The position numbers and the translations under genes were made by a program. From an uncultured candidatus Brocadiaceae bacterium (GTDB taxonomy: Bacteria > Planctomycetota > UBA1135 > UBA2386), in the NCBI GenBank assembly GCA_964483245.1, contig CAZABP010000022.1, positions 1 to 64,000 on the forward strand: a stretch of 64,000 bases of DNA, in the 5' to 3' direction. How positions within the stretch are numbered: the stretch's first letter is position 1; each line of letters begins with the position of its first letter. Shown piece by piece: positions 8,511 to 62,140 of the stretch. A model generated the notes under the pieces. The model saw only the letters and a list, made by a program, of their open reading frames with translations, did not search any database and was not told where the DNA came from.

Positions 8511-8554
8511 TGCGGATGCGACCGGTGGCGCGCGAGTGTGACAAGGTGAGACCG

Positions 8555-8579
8555 AAAGGGTCTGACCCCTTTAGGATCA
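8555..8579. repeat. palindromic repeat GAAAGGGTCTGACCCCTTTAGGATC
   Basis: Same core (one G short) 5 nt upstream of the MFS ATG and 45 nt upstream of the ECF sigma GTG (divergent). Confidence 0.75.
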
Positions 8580-8583
8580 CCGC

Positions 8584-10273: not shown

Positions 10274-10344
10274 GCGGCGGAATGGCCGCGCGGGCCGGGC
10301 CCCGGGCAGCCGCCGGCGCCTGAGCGTCGTATACCGCTGTCGGC

Positions 10345-18278: not shown

Positions 18279-18280
18279 GA

Positions 18281-21335: not shown

Positions 21336-21339
21336 GGGT

Positions 21340-22519: not shown

Positions 22520-25288
22520 TCACGGCAGCCAGTTGCCGGCGCTGCCCTTGACCAGGCCGTCGGCGTCCAGCCACGAGTCGAGCACGATGCCGGTCGCCGG
22601 GTCGCTGAGCCGGCGGATCAGCGTCGCGCCGAGCGGGCCGGCGAACGTCGGGTCGGTTGCGCCGTCGCGCAGGTTCGGCACGTTCGGCACGACCATCGCG
22701 TGGTTGTTCGACGCGGTAGCGACGCCGGTCGGCAGCACGACGCGGTCCAGGTTGTAGTGGACGAGTGCCGGGTTGAAGCGCGTGTTCGGCGCGACATTGA
22801 ACGGCTGGCGGTTGGCGTCGCTGTCGAGCGGGTTGATCGGTCGGCCCTGCCGGTCGAACAGGAACAGACCGCTGCCGAGGCCGGCGACCATGTGCACCCA
22901 GATCGGCGAGTTCATCTGGTTGCCCGGATTCTGACCGATGTGCGATTGCAGCATCGTGAAGTCCAGGTTGCCGAAGTCGTTGTTCGCCATCTGCGTGCGG
23001 AACGTGCTGTAGATCCCGCTGTAGTTGGTCATGCCCTCGCTGGTCAGGTGGCACGCGACGCAATAGCGCGGTCCTTCATTGCTCGAAGTGACCTTGCCGC
23101 GGATCGAGTGCGCCAACATCGTGTTGAACCCCAGCGCCGGGAACTGCACGCCCGGATTGGCGCCGCGCCCCTCACGGTCGGAGAAGCAGAACACCTCCGA
23201 CCGCGCGTTGTTCAGGTCCTTGTATTGGAAGAACACCTTCGTGTTGGCGTTGAACTGCTCGATCTTGTTGTCCGGACCGACGCCGAGCTGGAACGGCACC
23301 GGTGACTGGTAGACGAAGTCGGCGTCCTCTTCCTCGAACACGATCCGCTGTCCGGTGATGTTCGAGAAGTTGTTGCCCTCGTCGTATTCACCCTGCAGGT
23401 GGCAGCCGATGCAGGTGTTGGTCCACGCCGAGTGGCACGACGCGCAGCTCATGTTGTCCATGTGGCTGAAACCGGCGGTGACGCCGCCAGCCTGCTGCGG
23501 GCCGATGCCGGTCGCCGCATTGCCGTCGGCGCGGCCCATCGAATACGACGCCTTGGCGCTGTAGACCGGCTGGTTCGTGAACGGGTGCAGCTTGCCACTG
23601 TCGACGACGACGTCCTTGGTCTGCACGACGAACAGGCGCCGGCCGCTGGTGCGGCTGGTCAGATACAGGTTGCCGTCCGCCTCCTTGACGACGTGGCGCA
23701 GCACCCTGCCGGCACCATCGAAGGCCATCTCCTTCTGTGTGCCGTCGTAGGCGGTGCCGACCATGGTCGGCGCATACGTGTCGACCTTGCCGTGGCACGA
23801 CTCGCAACGGATCTTGACGGCGTGCTCCATGCGGCTCGCGATCTGCTCGCCGTTCGGATCTCCGACGTCACCGCCGTGCACTTCGTAGCTGCCGTGGCAG
23901 TCGATGCAGCCCATGCCGGCCGCGTAGTGCACGTCCTCCGGCGTGTCGTCGCGGTTGTCGCCGTCGTAGTCCTCCATCAGGATGTACTGGTTCGCGTTGC
24001 GGCCGTTGAACGTGTTGTTGTCGACGACCGGATCGAACAGGCGCGTGTCGCGCGCGGTGTTGGTGAACCGGACCGGGTTGGCCGGGTACTGCACGCGGTT
24101 GCGCAGGTTTTGGTTCTGATCGAGGCGGATGCCCCAGTACTGCATGACCGTGCGGTTCGAACCCTGGTGGCAGCCGGCGCAGGTGTGGTCATCGATGCCC
24201 TCCTGCTGCATGCCGTTTGCCAGCGTTTTCTTGACGCTCAGGATCCGGTGCGCGCGCACGTGCGCGCGCTCCGGCTCGTCGATGTCATCCGGATCGATCG
24301 GTTCGGTCCGGTCGACGTTCGGGTCGCGGCTGCCGGTGCGCCCACCCAGGCTGTACGGCATGTGGCACGCCGTGCAGCCGGACGAGCGGTAGTCACCGGC
24401 GCGGTTGTTGGCGCCAGCGCTGCCGAGGTGGCAGTCACCGCAGGTGAATGCGATCTGCTCGTGGTACAGGTGCGCCAGCGGCGAGTTGCTGATCACGCTG
24501 CCGTCGGGATTCACGTCGTCGAGCAGCCCGGCCGCGTTGTAGGCCTGGTTGCGGAACATCCCCTGCCCCGGCGTGCCGCGCACGCTGTAGACCGGGTACT
24601 CCTTCAGCTCGCCGATCATGCCGAATGGCGCGGTCGCCGGGTTGAAGTCCGGGTCGACGACGGCGCGGAAGCCGAGGTCGTTCGCCGTGTCCAGGTACAG
24701 CCCGACGTGCGCCGGCAGGTGGTTGTCGTGGCCGGCCGCATACGTGGCGCCACCGAGGATGCCCATCTCGGTCGCCAGTGGACTGCCGGCGACGGAGTCG
24801 GCGTGGTTCTGGTGGCACTGCCCGCACGAACGCGCCTGCGTGACCACACGCAGGTCACCCGGCTGAATGAACTGCAGATAGTCGATCGCCGTGTACGTGC
24901 GCCCGTTGGCCGTGTAGTCCGGGAACTTGTCGATGCCGGCCAGAGTCAGCCGGTTGAAATACGCCAGCTGGTTGACGCGGAGGTTCTCGCGGTCGCCGAT
25001 CTGCGGCGGCGGCGGCACGTGGCTCTCCTCCTTCGTGGCGCCGTCCGGATTGCCGCCGTGACAGGTCGTGCAGGTCAGGTTGTCGGCACCTGGGAATGGG
25101 TGGGGGTTCTCGAGCCCCGGCCCGCTGTAGTCGTTGCCGGTCGACCCGTTGTGGCAGGTCATGCACGACTGCGCAGTCGAGGCGGAACCGTCCCGTCCGC
25201 CGCCGCTGCATGCGGCCAGCAGCGCGAATGCGCTGAGCGAAACGGCACGGAACCACGGAACGCGGAGACCGCGGCGCGGATTGCTCAT
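22520..25288 (-). CDS. multiheme c-type cytochrome lipoprotein (11 CXXCH)
   Basis: ATG at 25288; lipobox LLAACSGG; 11 CXXCH motifs (CMTCH, CTTCH, CGQCH, CGDCH, CTACH, CAGCH, CIDCH, CESCH, CASCH, CIGCH, CVACH); 922 aa. Confidence 0.8.
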   Translation of the reverse strand: MSNPRRGLRVPWFRAVSLSAFALLAACSGGGRDGSASTAQSCMTCHNGSTGNDYSGPGLENPHPFPGADNLTCTTCHGGNPDGATKEESHVPPPPQIGDRENLRVNQLAYFNRLTLAGIDKFPDYTANGRTYTAIDYLQFIQPGDLRVVTQARSCGQCHQNHADSVAGSPLATEMGILGGATYAAGHDNHLPAHVGLYLDTANDLGFRAVVDPDFNPATAPFGMIGELKEYPVYSVRGTPGQGMFRNQAYNAAGLLDDVNPDGSVISNSPLAHLYHEQIAFTCGDCHLGSAGANNRAGDYRSSGCTACHMPYSLGGRTGSRDPNVDRTEPIDPDDIDEPERAHVRAHRILSVKKTLANGMQQEGIDDHTCAGCHQGSNRTVMQYWGIRLDQNQNLRNRVQYPANPVRFTNTARDTRLFDPVVDNNTFNGRNANQYILMEDYDGDNRDDTPEDVHYAAGMGCIDCHGSYEVHGGDVGDPNGEQIASRMEHAVKIRCESCHGKVDTYAPTMVGTAYDGTQKEMAFDGAGRVLRHVVKEADGNLYLTSRTSGRRLFVVQTKDVVVDSGKLHPFTNQPVYSAKASYSMGRADGNAATGIGPQQAGGVTAGFSHMDNMSCASCHSAWTNTCIGCHLQGEYDEGNNFSNITGQRIVFEEEDADFVYQSPVPFQLGVGPDNKIEQFNANTKVFFQYKDLNNARSEVFCFSDREGRGANPGVQFPALGFNTMLAHSIRGKVTSSNEGPRYCVACHLTSEGMTNYSGIYSTFRTQMANNDFGNLDFTMLQSHIGQNPGNQMNSPIWVHMVAGLGSGLFLFDRQGRPINPLDSDANRQPFNVAPNTRFNPALVHYNLDRVVLPTGVATASNNHAMVVPNVPNLRDGATDPTFAGPLGATLIRRLSDPATGIVLDSWLDADGLVKGSAGNWLP

Positions 25289-26390: not shown

Positions 26391-26455
26391 GGGAGGCTTG
26401 GGGTCAGACTCCATCCCTCCCGTTTCAGGAGGCATGGAATCTGACGCCAACCAGG
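26391..26455. repeat. compound palindromic repeat, second copy
   Basis: GGGAGGCTTGGGGTCAGACTCCATCCCTCCC-GTTTCA-GGAGGCATGGAATCTGACGCCAACC starts 1 nt after the AlkD-like stop. Confidence 0.8.
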
Positions 26456-26520
26456 GTCCGGGCTGGCAATAGGCTGCCATTGCGGGCGCAATTGCGTCTG
26501 ATCCCTGCTGGCGGACACCG

Positions 26521-27117: not shown

Positions 27118-27162
27118 GACGATGCCCTCCTCCTCCCACGCCACCCCCCAGAAGGACCCGCG

Positions 27163-28761: not shown

Positions 28762-28827
28762 GGAGGTATGGGGTCTGACCCCAACCCTCCCGAAACGGGA
28801 GGCTTGGGGTCAGATTCCAAGCCTCCC
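28762..28827. repeat. compound palindromic repeat, third copy
   Basis: GGGAGGTATGGGGTCTGACCCCAACCCTCCC-GAAACG-GGAGGCTTGGGGTCAGATTCCAAGCCTCCC in the convergent region between flotillin and the 7-heme cytochrome. Confidence 0.85.
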
Positions 28828-28845: not shown

Positions 28846-29493
28846 TCAACGGATCCGCGCGTGGTTCCAGCTCGTCGTCACGTGGCAGCGTTGGCAGTCG
28901 TCGACGAAGCCGAGACCGATGTGCGGCGGGTTGTTGGCCTGCTGGACGTCGTCGACGTGACACGCGACGCACGCCGTGTCGGTCGGATAGATCCGCCCGG
29001 TCCAGATGCCGGGATGGCAGCGGTGGCAGCCGACCGCGAGGTGGGCGCCGGTCAGCGGGAACCGGGTCCGGTTGTGCATCTCGATCTGCCCCTCCGGCAT
29101 CCAGGTGCGCTGGCCGTGGCACTTGGTGCAGTCCTTGCCGAGCTCGCCTTGATGGAAGTCCTCGTGGCAGCCGGCGCAGCCGCGCGCGGCGAACACTTCG
29201 ACCGGCCCGCGGTCGTTGTGGCAACGAAGACACCGTGCCTGCGCGTGCGCGCCGACCAACGCGACCCCGGTCTCACGCTCGTGATCGAAGCGGAAGTCGT
29301 CGACCAGCACGTTCCAGGTCCGGCCGACGTGGCACAGGCTGCAATCGGCCGGGAACGAGTCGTGCGGCAGCACCGGACCGAGCGCCGACCACCAGCGATG
29401 CAGCGCGCCGTCGCGCGGCCCCTGCACCATGCAGCCGACCATGATCAGCAGCGGCAGCAGCGCCGCGATCAGCAGGTTTCTCTTGGTGCGCAT
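28846..29493 (-). CDS. 7-heme c-type cytochrome, paired-CXXCH type
   Basis: Signal peptide with possible lipobox (LIMVGC); 7 CXXCH; F-x-H...G-x-H...CxxCH repeats like the doubled-CXXCH domains of metal-reducer cytochromes. Confidence 0.8.
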   Translation of the reverse strand: MRTKRNLLIAALLPLLIMVGCMVQGPRDGALHRWWSALGPVLPHDSFPADCSLCHVGRTWNVLVDDFRFDHERETGVALVGAHAQARCLRCHNDRGPVEVFAARGCAGCHEDFHQGELGKDCTKCHGQRTWMPEGQIEMHNRTRFPLTGAHLAVGCHRCHPGIWTGRIYPTDTACVACHVDDVQQANNPPHIGLGFVDDCQRCHVTTSWNHARIR

Positions 29494-29506: not shown

Positions 29507-31219
29507 TCAGAACTTCTGTTGCATGTAGAACCCGATCGACCACGCCAGATCCTCGCCGATCAGATCGAGCTGCCCATAGACGGACAGATCCTGACCCGCC
29601 GCGGTGTAGAAGCTGCGGCTGCCGCGGAACCGGTGTTGATCGAGGTCCGCGACGTCGCTCGGAAAACCGAACTCGTGCACGTGCGAGTACTCGTACAACC
29701 ACTGCCACATCCCATCGTTCGCGTCGGTCTCCCAGATGACCCGGCCGCCGATCACGGCGACCGCGTCCCCGGTGTTGCCGAACAGCGCGACCGTCGTGCG
29801 GCTCCGTTCGCCGAACCAGTCCTTGCGCTCGAACCCGAGCTCCCCGGCGACGCCTTCATGGTCGTCGTCGTTCCACGCCGCCAGATACGTGTGCAGATCC
29901 GTCTCCCGCGACCAGCGCCACCAACCGTCGAACGACAGCAGGTCCGACTCCGCGCGCGCGATCTCGGCCGCCCAGGTCGGCAGATAGTCCTGCCGCAGCA
30001 CCTCCGGATACGCATTGCGCCGCCACGCGAACTGCAAACGGTTGCCGTTCTCATAGCTGCGTGACGCCGATGCGACCGCCTGCGTCAGCTCGAGGCCGGT
30101 CCCCTTGTTGACGTCGTTGCCGCGGTAGTAGTCGATCCAGAACGTGCCGTGGAGCTGCCACGCATCCAGCGGCAGGTAGTGCCCCTTCAACACCACGAGA
30201 TCCCGGTCCGAATCGCCGTCGTGCCAGGTCTTCTGGAAGCCGCCGCCGAACGAGATCGTCTGCGCGAGGTCCGCCGACCACACGTAGTACAGCGACGCCT
30301 GCACGTCGTCCCAGCCGTCCAGGTTGTCGTTCGGCTCCGGCATGAAGCCGACCGCGGCACCGAACCGGTCGCCGAAGTGTCCGCGGATGCCCCACTCGAT
30401 CCCGTCCAGGATCCCGAACTCCGGCATCCCGACCTGCAGGAAACGCCCGAGCTTCCACATCTGCGGCGAGAACCGGTCCCCGCCCAGCCGGTACGAGAAG
30501 TCCCGCACCAGCCCATTGCCGCCGTCGGCGTCGTTGTATTCGGTGCGTGAGTTCAGCTCGCCGTCGAAGCGCAGCTCGCCGCCGAGATGGAACGGATTCG
30601 TCAACCGCGCATCGATGCCGGCGCGGATGAACGACTCGTCGAAGTCGCTCTCCGGATGCTTGGTCGCATCCCCGATCACGTACAGCCGCCCGCTCAGACC
30701 CGCGAGCCGTTCACTCGGGGGCACCGCGTCGACCTGCGCCAGCAGCGGTTTGTCAGGCGTGTAGTTCTCGTCCCGGTTGCGCCACTCCGGCTTGGTCGGA
30801 TCCTGAGGTGGTTCCTGGCCGGGTTGCTGCGGCTGCGGCTGCTGCGGGTCGACCGGTGATGGCTCCACCGGCGGCGGTGGCGGCACCGGGCGCGGCTGTT
30901 CGAACCGGCCGACCGGTACCAGCACTTCGCCGCGCGTGCCGGGTGCCGGCGACACGGCGCGCAGCTGCAGCTCGACCAATGCGCTGCGCTCGTCGATCCG
31001 CGCGATCGTGCCGTGCAGGATCTCACCGCTGCGCGGGCGCAGTTCGACGGCGTCGCCGACCTCGATCCGGTCGTTGCGCCCACGGTCGACCGTGACCGTC
31101 CCGGGTGTCGGCGACGAGACGACGCGTAGCTCGAGGCGGCGATGCGTCAGGTCCTGTGCCAGCAGCGGCGCAGCGAGGAACAGCAGGGCCGCCGGCGTCC
31201 AGCGCATCGCTGGCTTCAT
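29507..31219 (-). CDS. outer-membrane beta-barrel protein (porin-like), candidate porin of a porin-cytochrome complex
   Basis: Signal peptide MKPAMRWTPAALLFLAAPLLAQD; Pro/Gln-rich linker; alternating amphipathic strands rich in Gly/Tyr/Trp/Asp; C-terminal aromatic residue (..MQQKF). Confidence 0.65.
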   Translation of the reverse strand: MKPAMRWTPAALLFLAAPLLAQDLTHRRLELRVVSSPTPGTVTVDRGRNDRIEVGDAVELRPRSGEILHGTIARIDERSALVELQLRAVSPAPGTRGEVLVPVGRFEQPRPVPPPPPVEPSPVDPQQPQPQQPGQEPPQDPTKPEWRNRDENYTPDKPLLAQVDAVPPSERLAGLSGRLYVIGDATKHPESDFDESFIRAGIDARLTNPFHLGGELRFDGELNSRTEYNDADGGNGLVRDFSYRLGGDRFSPQMWKLGRFLQVGMPEFGILDGIEWGIRGHFGDRFGAAVGFMPEPNDNLDGWDDVQASLYYVWSADLAQTISFGGGFQKTWHDGDSDRDLVVLKGHYLPLDAWQLHGTFWIDYYRGNDVNKGTGLELTQAVASASRSYENGNRLQFAWRRNAYPEVLRQDYLPTWAAEIARAESDLLSFDGWWRWSRETDLHTYLAAWNDDDHEGVAGELGFERKDWFGERSRTTVALFGNTGDAVAVIGGRVIWETDANDGMWQWLYEYSHVHEFGFPSDVADLDQHRFRGSRSFYTAAGQDLSVYGQLDLIGEDLAWSIGFYMQQKF

Positions 31220-33288
31220 CGGCGTCCGGGGCCGCGACGCTGGAACGGCCGGCCGGCGTCGCCATGGCAGGCGACGCAGTCGGTCGGCAGTGGCCGGTAG
31301 CGGATGACGTCACGGTCACCCTGGCGGAACGGCTTGTGGCATGACGAGCAGGCGACGTTGCGGTGTTGGTCCCCGAGCTTGAACCGTGAGTGGACGTCGT
31401 GGCGGAACACCAGGTCGGCGAACGATTCGGCACCCCGGTGACAATTCCGGCAGTCGACCGGGCCGCCTTCGTCGAACTGACCACCGTGCGGATCCTGGTG
31501 GCAGTCACTGCAGTGCTTGCCGTAGGTGCGCGCCCAGGTGCGGCCGTGCTCGTCCGGCTCGGCGAGGCGCGCATGGCACGAGCTGCAATCGGTGCGCTGA
31601 TGCGCCCCCTGCAACGGGAACCCGGTCCACTGCGCATGATCGAACCCGTTGGGGAACGCACGGAACGACGAGTCGACGTGGCAGCGCGCGCAGCTCGTGC
31701 GCCCGAGCACGGCGCGCGGCAGGCCGAGCCGATCGAACTCCCCCTGGTGCGGATCGGCATGACAGGTCACACAACCCTTGAACTCGCCGTGCTTGCGCGC
31801 GACCGAGCCGAACCGGCGCCCGAGCTCATCCGGCTCGAGCGTGGCTTCGTGGCAGGCCGCGCAGTCCGCCTGCGCATGCGCGCCGGTCAGCGCGAACCCG
31901 GTCCAATGCCCGTGATCGAAGCCGCCCTGCGGCAGCTCGGCGAACTTCGTCGGTGCATGGCAGTGGGCGCAGGTGCCGGCCGGATTCGCACCGAGCCCGC
32001 GGGAAAAGCGGTCGAAGTAACCCCGGTGCGCATCCTCGTGGCATTGCTCGCAGCGCGACGCCGTGCCATGGAATGTCGCCGGTTGGTCCGCGTGGGCACG
32101 CTCGTGGCACTTGCTGCACTCGACCTCCGCATGGCTCGCGACCAGCGGGAAGTTCGTTGTTGCGTGCTTCTGTACCGTGAACGCATGCGGCGCGAAGTGC
32201 GTCCGCTCGTGGCAGTCGATGCAGCCGTTCGCCGCGAACGCCTTGCCGTCGAACTCACCGCGGTGCGCGTCCTCGTGGCAGCTGCGGCACTCGTCCGCCG
32301 ACCGTCCCGGATACCGCGCGTGGAACGGCTCGCGCGCCGGATCGTGACACTGCTCGCAGCGCACGGCGTCGTGCGGCAGCGCGAGCGTGAACCCGCTGCA
32401 AGCGTGCTGCTCCGGCGTCGTGAACACGCGCTCGTCGCGGAACTGCGTGTGGTTCGACGCGTGGCAGACCTTGCAGGATGATTCCGGCGCCACGCGCTCC
32501 AGCGCGGCGACGGCACTGACGAACTCCGGCCGGTGCGGCGATTCGTGGCAGTCGGCGCAACCGCGCGCGCGCCCCGCTACGCGCCGCTCGCCGATCGCCT
32601 CCAGTGAGTGCGCGTCGTCCGCCGCGTGGCACTCGCGGCAGGCGAGCTGCGCATGCCCGCCGGTCAGCGGCAGATGCCGGTCGTGACCATCCGCCGTCAG
32701 CTCGTTCCAGGCGAGCTGACCATGGCACTGGCTGCAGCTGATCTGCATCCGCCCTTCGTGCGCATCCTCGTGGCAGGACCCGCAGTCCTGCTGCAAGCCG
32801 AGGAACCGTTTCGCCCCCTTGGGCAGCTGCGCCACATCTGCGTGCGCATGGCACTGCTTGCAGTCGAGCGTCAGGTGGGTCCCGGCCATCGCGAAGCCGA
32901 CGGTCTGGTGGTCGAACTTCAGCGGATCGCCGACGCCGGCCATCGCGAAGCTGAGCCGGTTGACCAGCACGAACTCCTCGCCGTGGTGTTCGCTGTGGCA
33001 GCTGCCGCAGAGCTTCGCGCGCTCGGCGTCCAGTCCGCCGTGCAGCCCCTTGCGCTGCTCCAACTGCTCGCCGATCGGCGCGTGGCACTCCAGGCAGCTC
33101 GCGGTCATCTCGCCGAACCAGCCGCCGTGGCAGTGCGCGCAGCTGCCGAGCCCGACCAGCTCCGGTTCGCGCGCGTGCACGCCCGAGATCGGTCCGGGCG
33201 CCGTGCGCGTCAGATCGCTGGCGACGATCGCCAACACCCCGGCGAGCGACAGCGCGGCGATCCACAGCCTCGGGTGCAGGATCCTCAT
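31216..33288 (-). CDS. 23-heme c-type cytochrome, paired-CXXCH repeats
   Basis: ATG 33288 with GGAGGTGG Shine-Dalgarno (RBS) 5 nt upstream; N-terminal signal/anchor; 23 CXXCH counted; ATGA overlap with upstream gene. Confidence 0.8.
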   Translation of the reverse strand: MRILHPRLWIAALSLAGVLAIVASDLTRTAPGPISGVHAREPELVGLGSCAHCHGGWFGEMTASCLECHAPIGEQLEQRKGLHGGLDAERAKLCGSCHSEHHGEEFVLVNRLSFAMAGVGDPLKFDHQTVGFAMAGTHLTLDCKQCHAHADVAQLPKGAKRFLGLQQDCGSCHEDAHEGRMQISCSQCHGQLAWNELTADGHDRHLPLTGGHAQLACRECHAADDAHSLEAIGERRVAGRARGCADCHESPHRPEFVSAVAALERVAPESSCKVCHASNHTQFRDERVFTTPEQHACSGFTLALPHDAVRCEQCHDPAREPFHARYPGRSADECRSCHEDAHRGEFDGKAFAANGCIDCHERTHFAPHAFTVQKHATTNFPLVASHAEVECSKCHERAHADQPATFHGTASRCEQCHEDAHRGYFDRFSRGLGANPAGTCAHCHAPTKFAELPQGGFDHGHWTGFALTGAHAQADCAACHEATLEPDELGRRFGSVARKHGEFKGCVTCHADPHQGEFDRLGLPRAVLGRTSCARCHVDSSFRAFPNGFDHAQWTGFPLQGAHQRTDCSSCHARLAEPDEHGRTWARTYGKHCSDCHQDPHGGQFDEGGPVDCRNCHRGAESFADLVFRHDVHSRFKLGDQHRNVACSSCHKPFRQGDRDVIRYRPLPTDCVACHGDAGRPFQRRGPGRR

Positions 33289-35612
33289 CCGCCACCTCCG
33301 CGCAGGATCGAGCCGTACGCGAGCGCGTGGACGACGTGCACGATGACCAGCAGCACCATCAACGCGGCGACCCAGCGGTGGACGTAGCGCCACGTTGCGA
33401 GCAGCGCGCGCAGGTCCTCGTAGTGCGCCGCCATGACGGCGAGCCAGTGGGCTTCCCGCGCGAGCTGCACGGTCTCGCGGATCTGCGGCTCCGGCACGCC
33501 GTCGCGGCGACCGGTCGCCGCCAGCTCCCGCAGCAGCTTGCGCAACGAGCGTTGCATGCCGAGCAGGCCGAGCAGCCGGCCGACGAACGAAGTCCGCCAT
33601 TGCCGCTGGTGCAGCAGCGCGTCGATCCGCTCCCGCGCGAGCTGGCGGAAGCGCGCCTGCTCGCGATCCCAGTCGGCCGACGCACGGCCGAGCTTCGCCC
33701 GCACCTCGGCCAGCGCGAGCTCACGCCCGTTCGTCGCCCGTGGCACGTACGCATAGAAGTACCGCCCGATCGCGCCGCTGACGAACAGCACGACGAGACC
33801 CCAGAACGCGTGCCCGCCCGGCGTATCGCGCGGATTCATCGCCGCATGCAGCAGCGCGCACAGCAGCGCGAGCGTGCCGGTCGCGACGTGCACGCTCATC
33901 CAGGCCTGCAAGGACCCGAGCCGCACGCGCAGCCGCGGCGAGCGGCGCACCAGATACGCGAGGTTCATCACGATCAACACGACCGCGAAGATTCCGAGCC
34001 ACAGCCCAAGCCCGTCACCGGGCCGCAGCCAGGTGTGCTTCTCGCTGGTCGCGCGTTCGACCTGCGCACCGGCGTAGTAATCGAAGTGCCACAACGCCCA
34101 GGTCAGCGCGCCGAGCGACAGCACGAATCCCGCGCCGAGCGCACGCATCAGCCCGGTGCCTTGTGCTTCGGTCGCCGGCGCCTTTGGCCGCAGCTCCGGA
34201 TCGAACGAGACCCCGCTCTGCTCGAGCAGTTCGAACGGGGCGATCCCGCCGATCATCACGAACACGTCGTCGTTCGGCAGCCGCATCCGCCGCAGGCCCT
34301 GCGGAGTCTGCACGTCCAGCTCGACGGCGTCGGGGCGGATCGCGACGACTTCGCTGTGGAACACGATCTTCAGCCGGCCGGCGGCGAGATCGCGCTGCAC
34401 CCGCTCCTGGTTCTTGGTGCGGATCCGGAACAGCTCCGCCTTGCGGTACGACAGCGTGACCTGGTTGCCCGGCTGCTCGGCCAGCGCCAGCGCCGCCTCC
34501 ACCGCGCTGTCACCGCCGCCGACGACGAGGATCCGCCGGCCGGTGAACGAGTGCGCATCGAGCAGCGAGTACGCGACCTTCGGCAGCTCCTCGCCCGGGA
34601 CCCCGAGCAGCCGCGGCACGCCGCGCCGCCCGATCGCCAGGCAGACGTGACGCGCCGCCCAACGTTGCGTCACCGGGCCGGGGCCGCGTGCAGCGGTGCC
34701 GGGCCGTGCGGCAGCGGCGCCGGCCGCGACCCCTACGGCTTCGCGGCGCGCCGCCTCGTGGTGCACTTCCGCGCGAACCTCGAAGCCACCCTGCCCGTCC
34801 GCGAGCAGCCCGGTGAACACCTGCCCGTATTCGACCGGCAGCTCGTGCTCCGCCGCGATCCGCTGCCAGAGCTCGATCAGCTCCTCCTTGGTGTAGGTCG
34901 GGCGATCGAGCGCGCCGCCGAGCGGCAGCTCGACCGGCATCGTCAACACCAGCTTGCGGCGCGGGTACTTCGCGACCGTGCCGCCGAGCCACTGCTCCTG
35001 TTCGAGCGCGATCGCGCGCAGGCCCAGGCGTCTGGCTTCGAGCAGGCACGCGATTCCGGCCGGTCCGGCACCGACGACGACGAGATCGAACCGCTCGTCG
35101 CCAGGGATCGGCTCGGCGGCGACGCGACGTGCGACCTCGGCCGCGACCGCGGTGCCCTGCTCGACCGCGCTCTTGATCAACGCATGCGCGGTCACCTCGC
35201 CGGCGAGGAACAGCCCGGGCGAGCCGATCGCTTCGAGGCTCTCGTCGAGGACCGGGACGTCGCGCCGCGTCTCGAGGTTCGTCAGCGTGACCGTGATTGC
35301 GCCGACCGGACACTCCCGTTCGCACTCGGCGACGCCGACGCAGCGCGCCGGATTGACGACGGCGGCCTGCCCGTGCACGAGCGCCAGCACGCCTTCCTCC
35401 GGACAGACCTGCACGCACGTGCCGCAGCCGAGGCAGCGCGAGAGGTCGATCGTCGGGTGCTGCAGCTTCGTCTCGGCGCCGCCGAGCTCGTGCGAGCGAT
35501 CGCGTTCGGCGACCGACTTCGCCATCCGGCGCAGGTCGGTCCGGCGCGCCCACACGCTCAGGAACGCGATCCCGAGCGCGAAGACGAGCGTCAGCAGCAG
35601 GCTCCAGCTCAT
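33285..35612 (-). CDS. membrane-bound ferredoxin-flavoprotein oxidoreductase with C-terminal ferric-reductase-like bis-His transmembrane domain
   Basis: N-terminal TM helix; two 4Fe-4S motifs (CLGCGTCVQVCP, CVGVAECERECP); FAD/NAD(P) Rossmann motifs (VVVGAGPAGIA, LVVGGGDSAVEAA); C-terminal about 250 aa with 4-5 TM helices carrying H-x13-H pairs. Confidence 0.6.
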   Translation of the reverse strand: MSWSLLLTLVFALGIAFLSVWARRTDLRRMAKSVAERDRSHELGGAETKLQHPTIDLSRCLGCGTCVQVCPEEGVLALVHGQAAVVNPARCVGVAECERECPVGAITVTLTNLETRRDVPVLDESLEAIGSPGLFLAGEVTAHALIKSAVEQGTAVAAEVARRVAAEPIPGDERFDLVVVGAGPAGIACLLEARRLGLRAIALEQEQWLGGTVAKYPRRKLVLTMPVELPLGGALDRPTYTKEELIELWQRIAAEHELPVEYGQVFTGLLADGQGGFEVRAEVHHEAARREAVGVAAGAAAARPGTAARGPGPVTQRWAARHVCLAIGRRGVPRLLGVPGEELPKVAYSLLDAHSFTGRRILVVGGGDSAVEAALALAEQPGNQVTLSYRKAELFRIRTKNQERVQRDLAAGRLKIVFHSEVVAIRPDAVELDVQTPQGLRRMRLPNDDVFVMIGGIAPFELLEQSGVSFDPELRPKAPATEAQGTGLMRALGAGFVLSLGALTWALWHFDYYAGAQVERATSEKHTWLRPGDGLGLWLGIFAVVLIVMNLAYLVRRSPRLRVRLGSLQAWMSVHVATGTLALLCALLHAAMNPRDTPGGHAFWGLVVLFVSGAIGRYFYAYVPRATNGRELALAEVRAKLGRASADWDREQARFRQLARERIDALLHQRQWRTSFVGRLLGLLGMQRSLRKLLRELAATGRRDGVPEPQIRETVQLAREAHWLAVMAAHYEDLRALLATWRYVHRWVAALMVLLVIVHVVHALAYGSILRGGGG

Positions 35613-35670: not shown

Positions 35671-36480
35671 TCAGCGGCGCGTGGCCGTGCTGCGCGGCGT
35701 CGTGGTCGGGTTCGGGTTCGGTTTGGGGTTCGGGTTCGGCGTCGTCTGCATCGACGGCTCCAGCGGCGCGGCGCCGGACGGCGCGGCCGGGTCCATCGTC
35801 GTCGCCGTGGCCGAGTTCGCGATGTAGTCGCGTGCCGTCTCGAGGCAGCGGTTGAACCGTGTGTCCAGCTCGAGCGACAGATCGGCGATCGCGCGGGCGT
35901 CGTCCTTGATCTCGGTCAGCGCGCCGGAGTTGAAGTCGTGGCGCAGGAAGTACGCCAGGTCGCGCGCCTGCTGGTTGAAGCTGTCGTAGCCGGCTGCGGC
36001 GCTCTTGGCGTGTGCGATCAGGCTCTGGTAGCGCTGCCAGGTCATGTCGTAGCGCGCCTGGCTGCGCCGGCGCAGCTGCAGGTTCGAGATCTCGAGCAGG
36101 TCCTGGTTCCAGTGGTCGAACACCGGCGTCGCGGCCGACTGCAGCTCGCGCACGGTGCCGTGCAACCGCTCTGCCTGCTGCTCCGACTCCTGGATCGCCC
36201 GCTGGTACTCCCCGAACGCGGCGCTCGGGTCACCCTTTGGATTCGCCGACGTCAGCGCTGCCATCAGATCGGTCGTGCTCTGAACCTTCTGCTTGCTCAG
36301 TTCCGCCTCGACGTGGACGCGCTCGACCCAGGTCATCAGCGCATCGATGCGCTCGACGGTCGGGCTCGTCGCGGGGCCGCTGCCGACCAGCCCAGAAACC
36401 CAGCTGCAGGCACCGAGGCCCGCCAGCGCAAGCACGCCGGCAGACGTCGCCAAGATCTTCGTTGCTCTCACTCTCGTCAC
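35671..36480 (-). CDS. lipoprotein (hypothetical) with C-terminal PNPNPKPNPNP repeat
   Basis: Lipobox LAGLGAC; coiled-coil-like body; C-terminus encoded by a GGGTTC hexamer tandem repeat. Confidence 0.5.
   Translation of the reverse strand: MTRVRATKILATSAGVLALAGLGACSWVSGLVGSGPATSPTVERIDALMTWVERVHVEAELSKQKVQSTTDLMAALTSANPKGDPSAAFGEYQRAIQESEQQAERLHGTVRELQSAATPVFDHWNQDLLEISNLQLRRRSQARYDMTWQRYQSLIAHAKSAAAGYDSFNQQARDLAYFLRHDFNSGALTEIKDDARAIADLSLELDTRFNRCLETARDYIANSATATTMDPAAPSGAAPLEPSMQTTPNPNPKPNPNPTTTPRSTATRR
35705..35743. repeat. GGGTTC-type hexanucleotide tandem repeat (about 6 units)
   Basis: GTCGGGTTCGGGTTCGGTTTGGGGTTCGGGTTCGGCGTC encoding PNPNPKPNPNP at the C-terminus of lipoprotein 35671-36480. 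Confidence 0.7.
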
Positions 36481-36611: not shown

Positions 36612-37664
36612 ATGGGATCGCAGTCATCGGCCTGGCTCGGGCTCCTGCTGTTGGCAGGATGCGGGGGTGCGGAGCGGACGCACCGGATCGGCCCGCCGCG
36701 CGTCGTGCCGGGGGAGCTGAAACTCGAAGTCCCGCCGGCAGTCCGGCATGGATTCGCGATGCAGGCACCGGATCCGGCGGCGTCGGCGCAGGCTTCGCTC
36801 GCCTACGACCTGCCACCGGGCTGGGTCACCGGCGCGCCGGGCGGGATGCGGATGCTGAGTTTCACGGCACCGGGGGGCATCGACGTGTCGGTGACCTCGC
36901 TCGGCGGCGCGGGCGGTGGGCTCGCAGCGAATCTCGACCGTTGGCGCGAACAGCTCGGACTCGCACCACTGACGCCGGCGGAGCTGGCGGCGTTGCCGCG
37001 TCGCACGGTGCTCGGCAGCGACGACGCGGTCGCGATCGACTTCCGCGGCGCCTGGCGCGGCGGCGGTCAGGAGATCGCGCAGGCGCGGATGCTTGGCATC
37101 GTCGTGACGCAGCCGGGTGGCACGCTGTTCGTCAAGGCCGTTGGGGCCGCGACCGCCGTCGATGCACAGGTGCGCGCATTCGACGCGTTCGTCGCGAGCC
37201 TGCGGCCGGCGACGGCGGCCGCACCTGCGGCTCCGGGTGGTGCTGCGGCGCCGCCGGCGACGGGCGGTGATCTCGCGTGGAGCGTGCCCTCGGGCTGGAC
37301 CAGTGAACCGGGCGCGGCGATGCGCGCGGTCACGCTGCGGCCGGGCGGAGATCGGGAGCTCGATGCCTATGTCGTCGTGCTCAGCGGCGCGGCCGGTGGC
37401 GTCGCCGCAAACCTCGACCGTTGGCGCGAGCAGCTCGGGCTGCCGAAGCTGACGCAGGCCGAGCGTGATGCGCTGCCGAGCATCGACATGCTCGGCGCGC
37501 CGGCGCCGCTGTTCTTCGCCGAGAACGGCAAGCTCGCCGTGCTCGGGACGGTCGCGCGGCTCGGGCAGGACAGCCTGTTCGTCAAGCTGGTCGGACCGGC
37601 CACGAAGGTGCCGCAGCATCGCGATGCGTTCGTGCGGTTCTGCCAGAGCTTGGTGCTGCGATGA
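36612..37664 (+). CDS. lipoprotein with internally duplicated about 120-aa domain (hypothetical)
   Basis: Lipobox LLLAGCGG; two copies of a module containing GG(L/V)AANLDRWREQLGL(A/P)..T..E..ALP; stop overlaps ccsBA start. Confidence 0.5.
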   Translation: MGSQSSAWLGLLLLAGCGGAERTHRIGPPRVVPGELKLEVPPAVRHGFAMQAPDPAASAQASLAYDLPPGWVTGAPGGMRMLSFTAPGGIDVSVTSLGGAGGGLAANLDRWREQLGLAPLTPAELAALPRRTVLGSDDAVAIDFRGAWRGGGQEIAQARMLGIVVTQPGGTLFVKAVGAATAVDAQVRAFDAFVASLRPATAAAPAAPGGAAAPPATGGDLAWSVPSGWTSEPGAAMRAVTLRPGGDRELDAYVVVLSGAAGGVAANLDRWREQLGLPKLTQAERDALPSIDMLGAPAPLFFAENGKLAVLGTVARLGQDSLFVKLVGPATKVPQHRDAFVRFCQSLVLR

Positions 37665-40600
37665 GTTGGCTGCTGCAAGGATTCGCGGTGCTCGCGTCGT
37701 ATCGGCTGGCGTTCGTCTGCCTGGCCGGGCTGTTCGTGACGACCTGGCTCGGAACGCTGTACCAGGTCGACCACGGGCTGTGGGCGGCGCAGTGGGCGTA
37801 CTTCGAATCGTGGCTGCTGTGGCAGCGGCTCGGGGATCTGTTCGTTGGCAGCGGGATGCCGGCGTGGCTCGACGACAGCAGGCTCGCGCTGCCGTTGCCG
37901 GGCGGGATGCTGTGGATGTCGCTGCTCGGCGTCAGTCTCGTCTGCGGCGGCTTCGTGCGGCTGTTGCGCTCGATGCGCGGTGGCGCGCGGCTGATCCCAC
38001 GCGCCGGCGTGTTGGTCGTGCACTGCGGGATCGCGCTGCTGTTGATGGCTGGCTGGGTGCGGTTCGCGCAGGCCAGCGAGGGTTCGATCACGCTGACCGA
38101 GGGGCAGACGGCACGCAGCTATGCCAGCTTCCACGACTGGGAGCTCGTCGTCGCGCGGCAGGTCGGCGATGGCGAGGTCGAAGAGCACCTGATCCCGGGC
38201 GCGCGGTTCCTGGACCTGGAGGACGGCGAGCAGGCGGAGTTCGTCTCCGACCTGCTGCCGTTCCGGATCGTCGTCGTGCAGGCGGCGCGCAACAGCGACG
38301 TGCGCCGGCACGGCGGTGAGTTCCTGCTGCGGCGCAAGCTCCCGCTGGCGGAGAACGAGCGCAACATGGCTGGTTGCGTGGTCGCGCTGCGCGATGCGAG
38401 CGGCGGTGAGCTGCGCGGCGTGCTGTGCGGCACCGACACCGCACCGTGGACGGTCGGCATCGGTGACGAACGCTGGGCGCTGGCGCTGCGCAAGGAGACC
38501 TGGCCGCTGCCGTTCGCGTTGCGGCTGGAGGACTTCACGGCGGAGATGCACCCTGGCACGACGAAACCGAAAGCCTTCCGCAGCGATGTCACGGTGCGGA
38601 CCGCTGCCGGCGAACGACGTACCAGGATCGAGATGAACGAGCCGCTGCGGCTCGGCGACGTCGTCGTGTACCAGAGCACCTGGGGTCAACAGGGAGGGAT
38701 GCCGGGGGCGCCGCTGTTCTCCGGGTTCCAGGTCGTGCGCAATCCGGCGGATCAATGGCCGCTGTACGGCTGCATCCTGATCGCGCTCGGGATGCTGCTC
38801 GCGTTCGGTTGGACGCTGGTGCGGTTCCTGACGCGCGAGACGTCGCGGGTCCGCGGCGCCGGTGCACTGCTGCTGGCCGGCGTGTTCGCCGCGCCATTGA
38901 GCACGCAGGCGCAGGAACCGCGCGCGCAGCCGTGGCCGGCCGCGGCGCTCGAGCATTGCGCGCGGCTGCCGGTGCAGGAGGACGGCCGCGTCAAGCCGCT
39001 GTTGACGCACGTCTCGTATCTGCTGCTGCGGATCAACGGCAAGCGCACGGTCAGCCTCGGTGCCGACCCGAGGTTCGGCGCCGCGGCCGGTGCGTCGCTC
39101 GACCCGGTTGCGTGGGCGCTCGACGTGCTGCTGTTCCCCGAGCAGGCGGACCTCTACCCGGTGTTCCAGGTGCAGACCAGCGAGGTGATCGATGCGATCG
39201 GCCTCGAGCACGACGGCAAGCGCAAGCGCGACCGGTACTCGTTCGCGGAGCTGCGCCCCGGTCTGCCGCAGTTGCTGGCACTCGCACAGCGGTTCGAGCG
39301 GATCGCCGAGAAGGACCGCTCCGGGATCGAGCAACAGCTCGTGATGCTGGCGCGCAACATCGCCGACTACGACCGGCTGGCGCGTTCGCTGGATGCTGCC
39401 CGGCTGCGGTTCCAGCCCGAAGGGGACGCGACGCTGCTTGCGCTGCTGGGCGGCCGCAGCGAGCTGCGGTTCTCGGAGCTGCTGCCGCATTGGCCGGCGC
39501 TGCAGACGGCGCGCGAGCAGAGCGCGGGCGCCAAGCGCTGGATCGCGCAGGCGCAGGGGATCGGCCGCGACGATGGCCTGCTGCACGTGCTGCCGCCACC
39601 GGATCCGGCGCAGGCTGCGTGGTTGCTGCCGGCCGATCTCGTGCGCGAGCATGCCCCGCCGGTCGCCGAGCCGGTGCTGGCGCTGCTGGCGCTGTTCGAG
39701 GAGCTGGTCGATGCGCGGCAGCAGCCGGCCCGGTTCGCTGCGGTCGCCGGCAGGCTGGACGAGGCGCTGCACGCGCAGCTGCGCGCGCGCGGCGAAGGCG
39801 CGAAGCTCGACCTCGAAGTCTCCTATCTGCAGGCGGACTGGTGCTGGCGCGCGCTGCTCGCGTTCGGACTCGCGCTGGTCGTGACCGCGGTCTCCTGGCT
39901 GCGACCGCGCAGCCGCCTGCTCGGCGGTGCGGCCTGGCTCGCGACGCTGCTCGGCGCCGGCCTGCTGGTGACCGGCATCGTGATCCGCTGCATCCTGCGC
40001 GATCGGCCGCCGATCAGCGGGCTCTACGAGACGATCCTGTTCGTGACCGCGGCGATCGTGCTGACCGGGCTCGTCGTCGAGCGGTTCTGGCGCCGCCGCG
40101 TGCTGTTGTCGCTGGCGGCTCTGCTCGGGTTCGCCGGGATGTTCCTGGCCGGACGGTTCGAAGCGAGCGAAGCACGCGACACGATGCCGACGCTGCAGGC
40201 CGTGCTCGACACGAACTTCTGGCTCGCGACGCACGTCACGGTCATCAACCTCGGCTACGCCGGTGCATTGCTCGCCGGCTTCCTGGCGCACCTGTATCTG
40301 CTGCGCGGGCGGCGGCGCGATCCGGCGTTCAGCGCCGCGATCGCACGCGCGACGTACGGCACGCTGTGCTTCGCGACGTTGTTCACGACCGTCGGCACGA
40401 TCCTCGGCGGGATCTGGGCGAACGATTCGTGGGGCCGGTTCTGGGGTTGGGATCCCAAGGAGAACGGCGCGCTGATGATCGTGCTGTGGAACCTGATGAT
40501 CCTGCACGGGCGGCTCGGCGGGATCGTCCGCGAGCACGGGATCGCGATGCTGGCGGTCGCCGGCAACGTGGTCGTCGTGTTCTCCTGGTTCCACACCAAC

Positions 40601-62019: not shown

Positions 62020-62140
62020 GTCCGGGATCCTCCCAATCGGATGCGCGGCAGTCTACGGGCGGATCGGCGCGGTGCGAGCGATCGATCGGCGCCCGGTCCC
62101 GACGCTGCCTGAGTCGAGCGGTAGACTCCTCGGCCCGCTC

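Follow-up and report, generated by a model that had tools for sequence, protein, structure and literature searches.

The question raised by this locus is what a c-type cytochrome with 23 hemes does in an uncultured planctomycete, and between which points of the cell envelope it may carry electrons. The window, the whole stretch of DNA that was analysed, is 64,000 nucleotides long. An initial annotation of it had described the cytochrome as a protein of 690 aa and had likened it to the paired-CXXCH nanowire cytochromes of Geobacter and Anaeromyxobacter. The 7-heme neighbour was recognized there, while the rest of the operon was missed: a fused flavo-Fe-S/putative di-heme-b protein is encoded directly upstream and an outer-membrane barrel directly downstream.

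Gene cluster and distribution

The genes of the cluster and its flank are listed below in the order of their coordinates, and five of them are designated as A, B, C, D, and G.

22520..25288, minus strand: G, a 922-aa 11-heme lipoprotein cytochrome with large non-heme regions (motifs, synteny, conservation)
28846..29493, minus strand: A, a 215-aa 7-heme lipoprotein cytochrome, 1 + 2x3 hemes (motifs, conservation)
29507..31219, minus strand: B, a 570-aa outer-membrane protein, the porin of the cluster
31216..33288, minus strand: C, the 690-aa 23-heme c-type cytochrome (motifs, repeats, conservation, Cytochrome_C7 at 91 bits, AF2)
33285..35612, minus strand: D, a 775-aa fusion protein (Pfam/NCBIfam, TM helices, motifs, conservation in 117 homologues)
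35671..36480, minus strand: a DUF2959 lipoprotein, at the head of the cluster, 58 nt upstream of D (PF11172, 69.9 bits)
36612..37664, plus strand: a 350-aa lipoprotein with an internal duplication, overlapping the start of CcsBA as ATGA
37661..40762, plus strand: CcsBA, a fused CcsB(ResB)-CcsA system II cytochrome c heme lyase, divergent from the cluster (Pfam/NCBIfam)

The order DUF2959-D-C-B-A-G is kept in essentially all of the 80 species-level planctomycete genomes that were fetched, and the DUF2959 gene lies upstream of D in 65 of 82 loci. Here, three unrelated genes on the plus strand (25521-28761) part G from A; elsewhere G follows A directly. CcsBA is found near the cluster in about 30 loci, and the 350-aa lipoprotein accompanies it in about 31. 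A scan of 28-37 kb for promoter and terminator consensus sequences gave nothing beyond the shuffled expectation.

The planctomycete genomes carrying the cluster come from soil, groundwater, lakes, sludge, and marine biofilms. Carriers include the cultured Saltatorellus, Engelhardtia, and Rohdeia, which are aerobic heterotrophs. We know of no report of metal reduction for these three, and a paper on them makes no mention of cytochromes or heme. No published description of the planctomycete cluster was found in a search that covered Saltatorellus/Engelhardtia cytochromes, Planctomycetota porin-cytochromes, Emticicia, a large-scale outer-membrane cytochrome survey, and a 2026 peat preprint.

Outside Planctomycetota, the D-type fusion was found on the plasmid pEMTOL02 of Emticicia oligotrophica (Bacteroidota), split into two adjacent genes. 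One encodes a membrane-domain protein of 281 aa in which the motifs of D are kept, and the other a Fer4/FAD protein of 440 aa, 36% identical to D residues 27-468. Next to them lie genes for two cytochromes, a collinear one of 23 hemes and another of 40, as well as for a homologous barrel and CcsBA. Read from its gene content, the Emticicia arrangement is an independent genetic linkage of the parts of D with a 23-heme cytochrome and a barrel.

The 23-heme cytochrome

The open reading frame of C is translated without stops, and the 23 canonical CXXCH motifs that had been reported were counted in it. They contain 46 of its 47 Cys residues and correspond to one heme per 30 aa; no CXXCK or other variant heme motif is present in C. 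When the residues of C were shuffled 20,000 times, CXXCH occurred 0.29 times on average and 4 times at most. Three features favour the start at 33288: a ribosome-binding site, its ATGA coupling, and homologues of matching length. The ribosome-binding site, already noted in the initial annotation, is GGAGGTGG, 3 nt before the ATG, with its GGAGG core 6 nt upstream. The ATG overlaps the stop codon of D as ATGA, and the same overlap is seen at the C/B junction. A 794-aa reading from 33600 was rejected, since it overlaps D and the homologues are ~690 aa long. A protein identical to C is on record in NCBI (82-kb contig), and 117 of the 120 closest homologues have exactly 23 CXXCH.

A hydrophobic N-terminal helix spans residues 8-26 of C, and residues 6-26 in the AF2 model (pLDDT 85.5), for which no fold matches were obtained. 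An export or anchor signal is therefore present, and it is probably a signal anchor. All 23 CXXCH and exactly 23 further His residues are invariant among 30 homologues of C (50-62% identity), and both sets are nearly invariant across 118. This conservation points to 23 bis-His electron-transfer hemes.

C consists of the N-terminal helix, hemes 1-3, six c7-like three-heme repeats, which align with one another, and a final two-heme unit. The description of C as a densely packed wire of repeated modules agrees with this layout and with the heme density. The proposed F-x-H...G-x-H...CxxCH module is real and is observed at hemes 4, 7, 10, 13, 16, 19, and 22; it marks the first heme of the three-heme repeat and is not a paired-CXXCH unit. 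C is a class III/c7-type multiheme cytochrome, passing the gathering cut-offs of Cytochrome_C7 (PF14522; 91.2 bits against 24.8) and Cytochrom_CIII (PF02085; 60.4 bits against 22.9). It fell short of the NCBIfam cut-offs for the nanowire_3heme model TIGR04257, a c7-type triheme domain of Geobacter 'nanowire' cytochromes (16.7 bits against 40), and for the DmsE/MtrA decaheme family TIGR03508 (45.2 bits against 192.2). Paired_CXXCH_1 (PF09699), which the initial annotation had named, reached 17.0 bits against a cut-off of 20.6 in a single stretch, residues 64-101, covering hemes 2-3.

A profile search of PDB (E <= 0.01) returned no chain of OmcS, OmcE, or OmcZ. The nearest solved relatives include the dodecaheme GSU1996 (3ov0, E 1.4e-6) and MtrA (6r2q_A), and the Desulfovibrio Hmc chains 1h29/1gws were matched at E ~8e-4. 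GSU1996, other Geobacter c7-domain polymers, and Hmc are built from repeated c7/c3-type heme units like C, but the likeness of GSU1996 and Hmc is weak and local, and the genomic context differs. GSU1996 has 12 hemes, one per domain being His-Met, whereas C has 23 with 23 invariant distal His.

These comparisons bear on the first interpretation of C, a nanowire cytochrome of the Geobacter/Anaeromyxobacter paired-CXXCH type that is extracellular or forms filaments. The weak similarity to GSU1996 would fit it, as would a weak precomputed Paired_CXXCH_1 match in about half of the C homologues. However, both Paired_CXXCH_1 and nanowire_3heme fall below their cut-offs in C, the solved nanowire chains are missing from the matches, and the lineage is Planctomycetota. 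Together with the translational coupling of C to the inner-membrane protein before it and the barrel behind it, the conserved N-terminal helix favours a periplasmic, membrane-tethered location. A nanowire of this type is thus very improbable. C had been expected to span the periplasm or the cell exterior; its context fits the periplasm, and the extracellular filament is not borne out.

Proposed electron path across the envelope

D begins with a TM helix, followed by a ferredoxin-like Fe-S domain, a thioredoxin-reductase-like FAD/NAD(P)-binding domain, and a C-terminal domain of five TM helices. The Fe-S domain contains CxxCxxCxxxCP and Cx5Cx3CP, and several 4Fe-4S families pass their cut-offs. 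Pyr_redox_3 matches at 113 bits, while YpdA and TrxR-like models match below their cut-offs. GGGDSA is followed by VTLSYRK..FRIR, which we take to resemble the NADPH 2'-phosphate site of thioredoxin reductases. D lacks a twin-arginine motif, and its TM0 and TM2 are each followed by basic residues; the flavo-Fe-S part therefore faces the cytoplasm.

In the C-terminal domain (residues 481-775), WX3HX13H is present on the third and fifth helices (WMSVH..x13..H at 571 and WRYVH..x13..H at 741) and SGAIG on the fourth (at 612; family consensus TGAIG). The four motif His residues are invariant in 117 homologues. From these two His pairs on two helices, the domain is inferred to bind two b hemes. Ferric_reduct (PF01794) reached 20.8 bits, short of its cut-off of 28; weak matches to DUF4405 (below cut-off) and Cytochrome_B were also obtained. 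Stand-alone relatives of ~300 aa were found at E 1e-20 to 1e-36, 53 of 58 with both motifs; tblastn of the membrane domain against plasmids gave no match.

On the outer side, the parts of B are, from the N-terminus, a signal peptide, a small beta domain (26-102), a linker rich in proline, and a barrel (174-569) of about 22 strands in the model; the last residue is Phe. A has 7 CXXCH in the same three-heme module as C, as had been proposed. Its Cys21, 7 CXXCH, and 7 extra His are invariant (62 sequences), as are Cys28, 11 CXXCH, and 12 extra His in G (59 sequences). In both, the lipobox Cys is invariant and the invariant His are numerous enough to give each heme two His ligands, and by analogy with Geobacter and Shewanella they are presumably exposed at the cell surface. 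A phmmer search of PDB with G gave insignificant matches to NrfA and MccA alone. G as a catalytic terminal enzyme was rejected, because its 12 invariant non-motif His suffice for bis-His ligation of all 11 hemes.

The chain could end inside the envelope, with C as a periplasmic electron store or distributor for reductive chemistry in the periplasm or at the outer membrane, for instance to repair oxidised proteins or to detoxify peroxide or metals, and with B as a substrate channel rather than a cytochrome sheath. Such a chain would resemble MsrQ feeding MsrP: members of the FRD family such as MsrQ bring cytoplasmic reducing power to periplasmic enzymes (PMC12525009). A Methylocystis plasmid carries the membrane-domain family with a cytoplasmic 2Fe-2S protein and without cytochromes, and a capacitor role was suggested for PCC3 cytochromes. 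Against this, all genomes examined show strict linkage of the cluster to a large barrel and two multiheme lipoproteins, the hallmark of outer-membrane conduits. The cluster contains no conserved catalytic partner enzyme, and the hemes of A and G all appear bis-His, so that none looks catalytic. An ending inside the envelope is rather unlikely, and a conduit architecture with C as the periplasmic wire is highly likely.

In the path that we prefer, NAD(P)H would reduce the FAD of D in the cytoplasm, as its domains suggest, and electrons would pass through the ferredoxin-like Fe-S domain. They would cross the inner membrane over a stack of two b hemes ligated by the four invariant His of the 5-helix domain, as motifs and topology suggest, and enter C, which its conserved N-terminal helix probably tethers to the inner membrane. 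The 23 bis-His hemes, counted and assigned ligands by conservation, would form a chain long enough for the periplasm. The outer membrane would be crossed inside or alongside the barrel of B, and at the surface A and G would reduce an external acceptor, with Fe(III) or Mn(IV) minerals, humic quinones, and O2 as candidates. A pyridine nucleotide is the donor in the main view, and the candidates are NADPH, NADH, or a ferredoxin-like partner.

With a pyridine-nucleotide donor, and with outward di-heme-b flow discharging the membrane potential, the system would work like a diderm NOX/FRE/STEAP. It would be better suited to assimilatory or redox-balancing reduction than to energy-conserving respiration. 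We infer from sequence an outward, NOX/FRE-like, and quinone-independent conduit; against quinone independence, the 5-helix domain of D may have a quinone site. That C is the periplasm-spanning wire of a conserved trans-envelope conduit from an NAD(P)H-type flavoprotein to the cell surface is probable as a whole, and for NAD(P)H-driven outward flow the balance is slightly favourable.

The same parts could carry electrons inward: a cathode, or Fe(II), Mn(II), or reduced humics outside the cell, would supply the inner membrane, where D would feed quinone or reduce NAD(P)+. Chains of bis-His multihemes are reversible, and the source of related OFTM MAGs is a tunnel biofilm that oxidises iron and manganese. 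The known cultured carriers, however, are heterotrophs and not lithotrophs. Reduction of NAD(P)+ (about -320 mV) by Fe(II) against an inside-negative potential would be doubly uphill, and the topology of D reveals no coupling site. Inward uptake was first proposed for PCC3 in iron oxidisers (PMC5566968); the discovery of PCC3/PCC4 was made in neutrophilic Fe(II) oxidisers, and both were modelled as conduits for uptake. In Sideroxydans ES-1, however, both PCC3 clusters are down-regulated on Fe(II) (PMC8788666). Inward flow is unlikely.

Relation to known systems and possible role

The closest described system is the PCC3 porin-cytochrome cluster, itself predicted from genomes (He et al. 2017, PMC5566968; Hoover et al. 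2023, PMC9900912). The inner-membrane protein of PCC3/PCC4 is defined by 5 TM helices, two WX3HX13H motifs, and SGXXG (PMC5566968), and compared by this motif description, D corresponds to it, with WX3HX13H on TM3/TM5 and SGXXG on TM4. An adjacent outer-membrane beta-barrel gene (B) and a heme-dense periplasmic repeat cytochrome are also shared, with 21, 24, or 27 hemes in the published proteins and 23 in C. The outer multiheme cytochrome of PCC3 has candidate counterparts here in the conserved lipoproteins A and G, which by analogy would lie on the surface side.

The two systems differ in several points. The inner-membrane domain of D is fused to a 480-aa membrane-anchored Fe-S and FAD/NAD(P) reductase, encoded by a separate adjacent gene in Emticicia, whereas the description of PCC3 is without a reductase component and assumes exchange with the quinone pool; He et al. 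proposed a quinone site on the inner-membrane protein (PMC5566968). C is fixed at 23 hemes. The candidate outer cytochromes are 7- and 11-heme lipoproteins, in contrast to a single PCC3 protein with a median of 34 hemes, and the hosts are Planctomycetota or Bacteroidota instead of Proteobacteria. PCC4, with cytochromes of 4, 5, and 10 hemes, and the 8-heme porin-cytochrome cluster of Verrucomicrobia were rejected on heme counts and gene content.

In MtrCAB of Shewanella and in OmaB-OmbB-OmcB/ExtABCD of Geobacter, the periplasmic cytochrome has 8-12 hemes against 23 in C, which is, in addition, probably anchored to the inner membrane. In the cluster, no quinol dehydrogenase of the CymA, ImcH, or CbcL type was seen; it has the flavo-Fe-S/putative di-heme-b protein instead. 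MtrB has 26 strands, against the ~22 modelled in B. In the arrangement proposed for D, as in NOX/FRE/STEAP and MsrQ, a cytoplasmic NAD(P)H/flavin module passes electrons outward to two b hemes on paired His of two helices. The reductase of D, however, is of the thioredoxin-reductase/Pyr_redox type with a ferredoxin-like Fe-S domain, not the FNR type of NOX, and on the far side its electrons would go to a 23-heme cytochrome, where the others reduce O2, a metal ion, or MsrP. A survey of the FRD superfamily makes no mention of a D-type fusion (PMC3591440).

Porin-cytochrome conduits are the known route for electrons across the diderm envelope. Every characterised one starts at the quinone pool and belongs to metal respirers or metal oxidisers. 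The cluster suggests that electrons may enter elsewhere, through a flavoprotein that uses a pyridine nucleotide and is joined to a di-heme-b membrane domain, and that one 23-heme protein could reach across the whole periplasm. PCC3-type clusters have been without an assigned function since 2017; for them it offers the hypothesis that the inner-membrane protein they conserve relays electrons across the membrane and receives them from cytoplasmic redox proteins. Since three cultured strains carry the cluster, these proposals are testable. More tentatively, the Saltatorellus/Engelhardtia lineage and some Bacteroidota might possess a quinone-independent circuit from cytoplasmic NADPH to the surface, used not for respiration but for reductive iron acquisition from particles, extracellular superoxide, or reduction of Mn or humics. 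If so, electrons would run from FAD through Fe-S clusters and 2 heme b to 23 + 7 + 11 heme c, and the circuit would be the diderm counterpart of eukaryotic NOX/FRE.

Reading frame, repeat structure and family of the 23-heme cytochrome

The genes considered here are listed in cluster order, with the divergent lipoprotein gene last.

Genes of the cluster and the divergent gene beside it
35671-36480, reverse strand, DUF2959 lipoprotein
33285-35612, reverse strand, D, 775-aa fusion protein
31216-33288, reverse strand, C, 690-aa 23-heme c-type cytochrome
29507-31219, reverse strand, B, 570-aa predicted outer-membrane barrel protein
28846-29493, reverse strand, A, 215-aa 7-heme lipoprotein
22520-25288, G, 922-aa 11-heme lipoprotein
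36612-37664, forward strand, 350-aa lipoprotein, with a gene for a fused CcsB-CcsA heme lyase, both divergent from the cluster

The gene for C is a stop-free open reading frame, and the 690-aa product contains 23 canonical CXXCH motifs, as the initial annotation had stated, at a density of 30 residues per heme. CX3-4CH and CXXCK variants were not found in C. The protein has 64 His and 47 Cys, 46 of which are inside the CXXCH motifs, and 20,000 shuffles of its residues gave on average 0.29 motifs and never more than 4, against the 23 observed. Residues 8-26 are hydrophobic and modelled as a helix; thus, neither frameshifts nor the lack of an export signal, the two findings named in advance as speaking against this gene, was seen. 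An identical protein is on record in NCBI, on an 82-kb contig.

A mechanical ORF list offered a 794-aa version of C starting at 33600. It was rejected because this start falls inside D and the homologues are ~690 aa long, and the start is therefore placed at 33288. GGAGGTGG lies immediately 5' of this ATG. This ribosome-binding site (window 33288-33305) is at the same time the Gly codons of the C-terminal RGGGG of D. The consensus of the D family likewise has glycines at its C-terminus, so the coding sequence of D and the translation signal of C may constrain each other. The stop codon of D and the start codon of C overlap as ATGA, and the stop of C overlaps the start of B in the same fashion.

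The motif-by-motif layout of C has a period of three hemes, with the formula 3 + 6x3 + 2 = 23. The sequence (F-x-H)...G-x-H-x4 precedes each of hemes 4, 7, 10, 13, 16, 19 and 22, the second heme of the unit is followed by [ED]-[DAS]-x-H-x-G-x-F, and the third heme ends the unit. Seven units of C and two units of the 7-heme lipoprotein A can be aligned mutually with 26-35% identity, which bears out the earlier proposal that A is built from the same module. The module F-x-H...G-x-H...CxxCH recognized at that stage is real, and the unit alignment places it at the opening of a c7-like three-heme repeat. Its assignment to the paired-CXXCH domains was not upheld by the Pfam scan, in which Paired_CXXCH_1 stayed below its cut-off.

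Family scores of C
Pfam Cytochrome_C7: 91.2 bits, cut-off 24.8
Pfam Cytochrom_CIII: 60.4 bits, cut-off 22.9
Pfam Paired_CXXCH_1: 17.0 bits, cut-off 20.6, one site only
NCBIfam nanowire_3heme: 16.7 bits, cut-off 40
NCBIfam DmsE/MtrA decaheme: 45 bits, cut-off 192

These scores are consistent with the predicted c7-like three-heme architecture, and a nanowire of the filament type found no support.

In an alignment of 30 homologues with 50-62% identity, all 23 CXXCH motifs are invariant, and so are exactly 23 further His residues (H38, 83, 101, 127, 138, 177, 202, 212, 252, 295, 306, 342, 375, 386, 421, 459, 471, 514, 551, 563, 601, 630 and 642). The conservation of both sets is nearly the same across 118 sequences. 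This is the pattern that 23 bis-His, low-spin, electron-transfer hemes would be expected to leave. Taken alone, C is an extreme but otherwise ordinary cytochrome of the c7/c3 class.

The database includes more than 1,800 relatives of C at E <= 1e-5. The best 120 of them are all ~690 aa and 50-62% identical to C, and 117 have exactly 23 motifs; every named one is from Planctomycetota, and all are annotated as hypothetical or as "cytochrome c3 family". Among contigs representing one genome per species, 467 stretches encode a relative of C. The best 80 of these are from named Planctomycetota, with a few titled only "bacterium"; the cultured strains Engelhardtia mirabilis Pla133, Saltatorellus ferox Poly30 and Rohdeia mirabilis Pla163 are represented among them by complete genomes. 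Record titles point to groundwater, lakes, bioreactors and a marine tunnel biofilm among the sources. Separately, a stretch of ~216 codons on many conjugative plasmids of sphingomonads (Sphingobium, Novosphingobium and Rhizorhabdus; hits H2-H15) matches residues 8-250 of C with 27% identity; its annotation is cytochrome C in one record and otherwise hypothetical.

Conservation of the gene cluster and its surroundings

The cluster proteins from the window were compared by tblastn with 82 fetched loci. The order DUF2959-D-C-B-A-G was observed in essentially every genome with a long enough contig. D, C and A are present in all 82 loci, B in 81, G in 70 and the DUF2959 lipoprotein in 65, while the 350-aa lipoprotein and CcsBA are near the cluster in about 30. 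In most other loci examined, no more than a few hundred bases separate A and G. In the window they are separated by three unrelated forward-strand genes at 25521-28761 (DNA-alkylation-repair-like, NfeD-like and SPFH/flotillin), and this block is a local, lineage-specific insertion.

A self-complementary, palindromic intergenic element (core GGGGTCTGACCCC) borders the three-gene block. It is located at 28768-28820, and also at 1949, 4230, 5843, 8557, 25428/25464 and 26398/26436, often as pairs ~36 nt apart that flank a CCTCCCGAAACGGGAGG hairpin. The window contains 18 matches with at most 3 mismatches, versus 1.5 expected. In form it resembles a REP-type element or a bidirectional terminator.

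The divergent 350-aa lipoprotein has an internal duplication in which AANLDRWREQLGL(A/P)(P/K)LT occurs twice, and the end of its gene and the start of the fused CcsBA gene share an ATGA. An accessory function in cytochrome c maturation is possible for this lipoprotein. Directly downstream from G, the reverse-strand region 14831-22410 encodes a zinc alcohol dehydrogenase, an enoyl-CoA hydratase, at least one 2-hydroxyglutaryl-CoA-dehydratase D-component and a BcrAD/BadFG-type activator ATPase; a further long ORF lies at 18281-20260. The encoded enzymes form a set of the oxygen-sensitive radical dehydratase or benzoyl-CoA-reductase-like kind, which hints at an anaerobic capability of the organism. 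A type III polyketide synthase (10324-11436, forward strand), an AddAB-like helicase-nuclease pair (52437-59227, reverse strand) and a radical SAM/SPASM protein (61508-63319, forward strand) are unrelated to the cluster.

The fusion protein D, its split form and the predicted outer-membrane partners

Pfam and NCBIfam indicated that D has, towards its N-terminus, a ferredoxin-like Fe-S domain (residues ~53-110), followed at ~175-477 by a thioredoxin-reductase/YpdA-like FAD and NAD(P) domain. The latter has two Rossmann motifs, GAGPAG and GGGDSA, and no redox-active CxxC was found in it. The second Fe-S motif (Cx5Cx3CP) has only three Cys, which suggests a complement like that of 7Fe ferredoxins for D, with a [3Fe-4S] and a [4Fe-4S] cluster. 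Behind the second Rossmann motif, a conserved VTLSYRK..FRIR is similar to the 2'-phosphate site of NADPH-dependent thioredoxin reductases, and on this likeness NADPH is favoured as the putative electron donor. In the window, the FAD/NAD domain also carries an Ala/Gly/Arg-rich insertion of ~32 residues (~34670-34765, residues ~283-314), which is absent from the other 116 aligned homologues.

Five hydrophobic helices lie in the last 295 residues of D; the third and the fifth each bear WX3HX13H (W571 and W741), and the fourth bears SGAIG. All four His are conserved without exception in 117 homologues. Matches to Pfam Ferric_reduct, DUF4405 and Cytochrome_B are present below cut-off. The same helix and motif features define the conserved inner-membrane protein of the predicted porin-cytochrome clusters PCC3 and PCC4, which was likened to the di-heme ferric-reductase domain (He et al. 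2017, PMC5566968). D has no twin-arginine signal, and basic residues follow its first helix and TM2; thus, the flavo-Fe-S part should lie in the cytoplasm, and each membrane face should have one b heme close by. An exhaustive HMMER search with the membrane domain alone revealed 1,371 representative relatives (413 at E <= 1e-10) in two main length classes, stand-alone proteins of ~270-310 aa and fusions of ~730-850 aa. Both WX3HX13H motifs are found in 53 of 58 stand-alone relatives, and both fusion-class relatives scanned (n=2) have Fer4 and Pyr_redox domains. This fusion is absent from the survey of the ferric-reductase-domain superfamily (PMC3591440).

A tblastn search against plasmids revealed the system in a second phylum, on pEMTOL02 of Emticicia oligotrophica DSM 17448 (Bacteroidota), at 74525-94369. 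The gene order there is ccsA (fused, 1028 aa), a 281-aa hypothetical protein, a 440-aa NAD(P)-binding protein, two cytochrome c3 family proteins of 635 and 1001 aa, a 538-aa hypothetical protein and a GW-domain protein. Both WX3HX13H motifs and an SGVVG occur in the 281-aa protein, which matches D residues 511-767 (E 9e-14). The 440-aa protein carries a TM helix as well as Fer4 and Pyr_redox domains and shares 36% identity with D 27-468 (E 1e-84). All 23 CXXCH motifs of the 635-aa cytochrome align one-to-one with those of C; the other cytochrome, of 1001 aa, contains 40. With hhalign, the 538-aa protein and the B profile align across 480 columns (probability 87%, E 4e-6). D is thus a fusion of two proteins whose genes are separate and adjacent in Emticicia, and the genetic linkage of the NAD(P)-type flavo-Fe-S protein to the conduit is independent of the fusion. 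The location of the whole system on a plasmid suggests that horizontal movement is possible.

On a plasmid of Methylocystis rosea (7240-9687), a relative of the D membrane domain adjoins a 560-aa 2Fe-2S protein, and no cytochrome c genes were found nearby. This hints that the di-heme-b membrane domain generally pairs with cytoplasmic redox proteins, and the module may pair with different cytoplasmic reductases.

B has 46 homologues and no match in Pfam or NCBIfam. In its AF2 model (pLDDT 84.4), a signal peptide precedes a small beta domain (26-102), which a disordered proline-rich linker connects to a predicted 22-strand barrel ending in Phe. Across ~60 genomes, the lipobox Cys is invariant in both A and G, together with 7 CXXCH and 7 further His in A, and 11 CXXCH and 12 further His in G. 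With these residues kept, A and G look like non-catalytic electron-transfer lipoproteins. G (84 aa per heme) has large non-heme regions, like MtrC and other surface cytochromes.

Proposed electron route and relation to PCC3

Alongside the observed heme counts, ligand conservation, domain content, lipoboxes, conserved gene order and split and fused forms, and the barrel fold shown by the model of B, it is very probable that the cluster encodes a trans-envelope conduit with C as its periplasmic wire. Near the N-terminus of C, P31-G32 is invariant and S14 and V18 nearly so; a cleaved signal peptide would rarely show such conservation, and C is probably tethered through its N-terminal helix. Extrapolated from 10-heme MtrA, at roughly 80 Å, the length of C would be about 180-200 Å. 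Electrons would pass from NAD(P)H to the FAD of D, through the Fe-S clusters to the cytoplasmic-side and then the periplasmic-side heme b, along the 23-heme chain of C, across the barrel B, and through the lipoproteins A and G to an external acceptor. It is conceivable that the conduit stops in the periplasm and serves as a capacitor or, like MsrQ, as a supply line, but this reading leaves the strictly linked barrel and two lipoprotein cytochromes unexplained.

For the trans-envelope conduit, we lean towards an outward flow driven by NAD(P)H. Inward electron uptake, the original idea for PCC3, is disfavoured on thermodynamic and topological grounds, and PCC3 is down-regulated on Fe(II) in Sideroxydans ES-1 (PMC8788666). 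Outward electron transfer through a di-heme-b domain, with NOX2 as an example, is electrogenic and runs down the membrane potential, so that no energy would be conserved at this step. An assimilatory or redox-balancing role therefore fits the system better than respiration. Candidate roles would be to reduce ferric iron for uptake, to reduce Mn oxides or humics, and to produce superoxide outside the cell.

PCC3, itself a genomic prediction only, is the closest described system (He et al. 2017, PMC5566968; Hoover et al. 2023, PMC9900912). Of its described defining features, the membrane-protein motifs (D), the predicted barrel (B) and a heme-dense, probably periplasmic cytochrome with repeats (C) were found here, a likeness at the level of features. 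The present cluster differs by its fused or adjacent NAD(P)-type flavo-Fe-S module and by its taxonomic range. The periplasmic cytochromes of PCC3 have 21, 24 or 27 hemes, multiples of three, whereas the number here is fixed at 23 and is the same in two phyla. Two smaller lipoprotein cytochromes are encoded here, in contrast to the one giant extracellular cytochrome of PCC3. No description of the planctomycete system was found in the literature searched. The system around C is uncharacterised, widespread and testable in culture, and the cluster suggests an entry point into extracellular electron transfer that is missing from current models.
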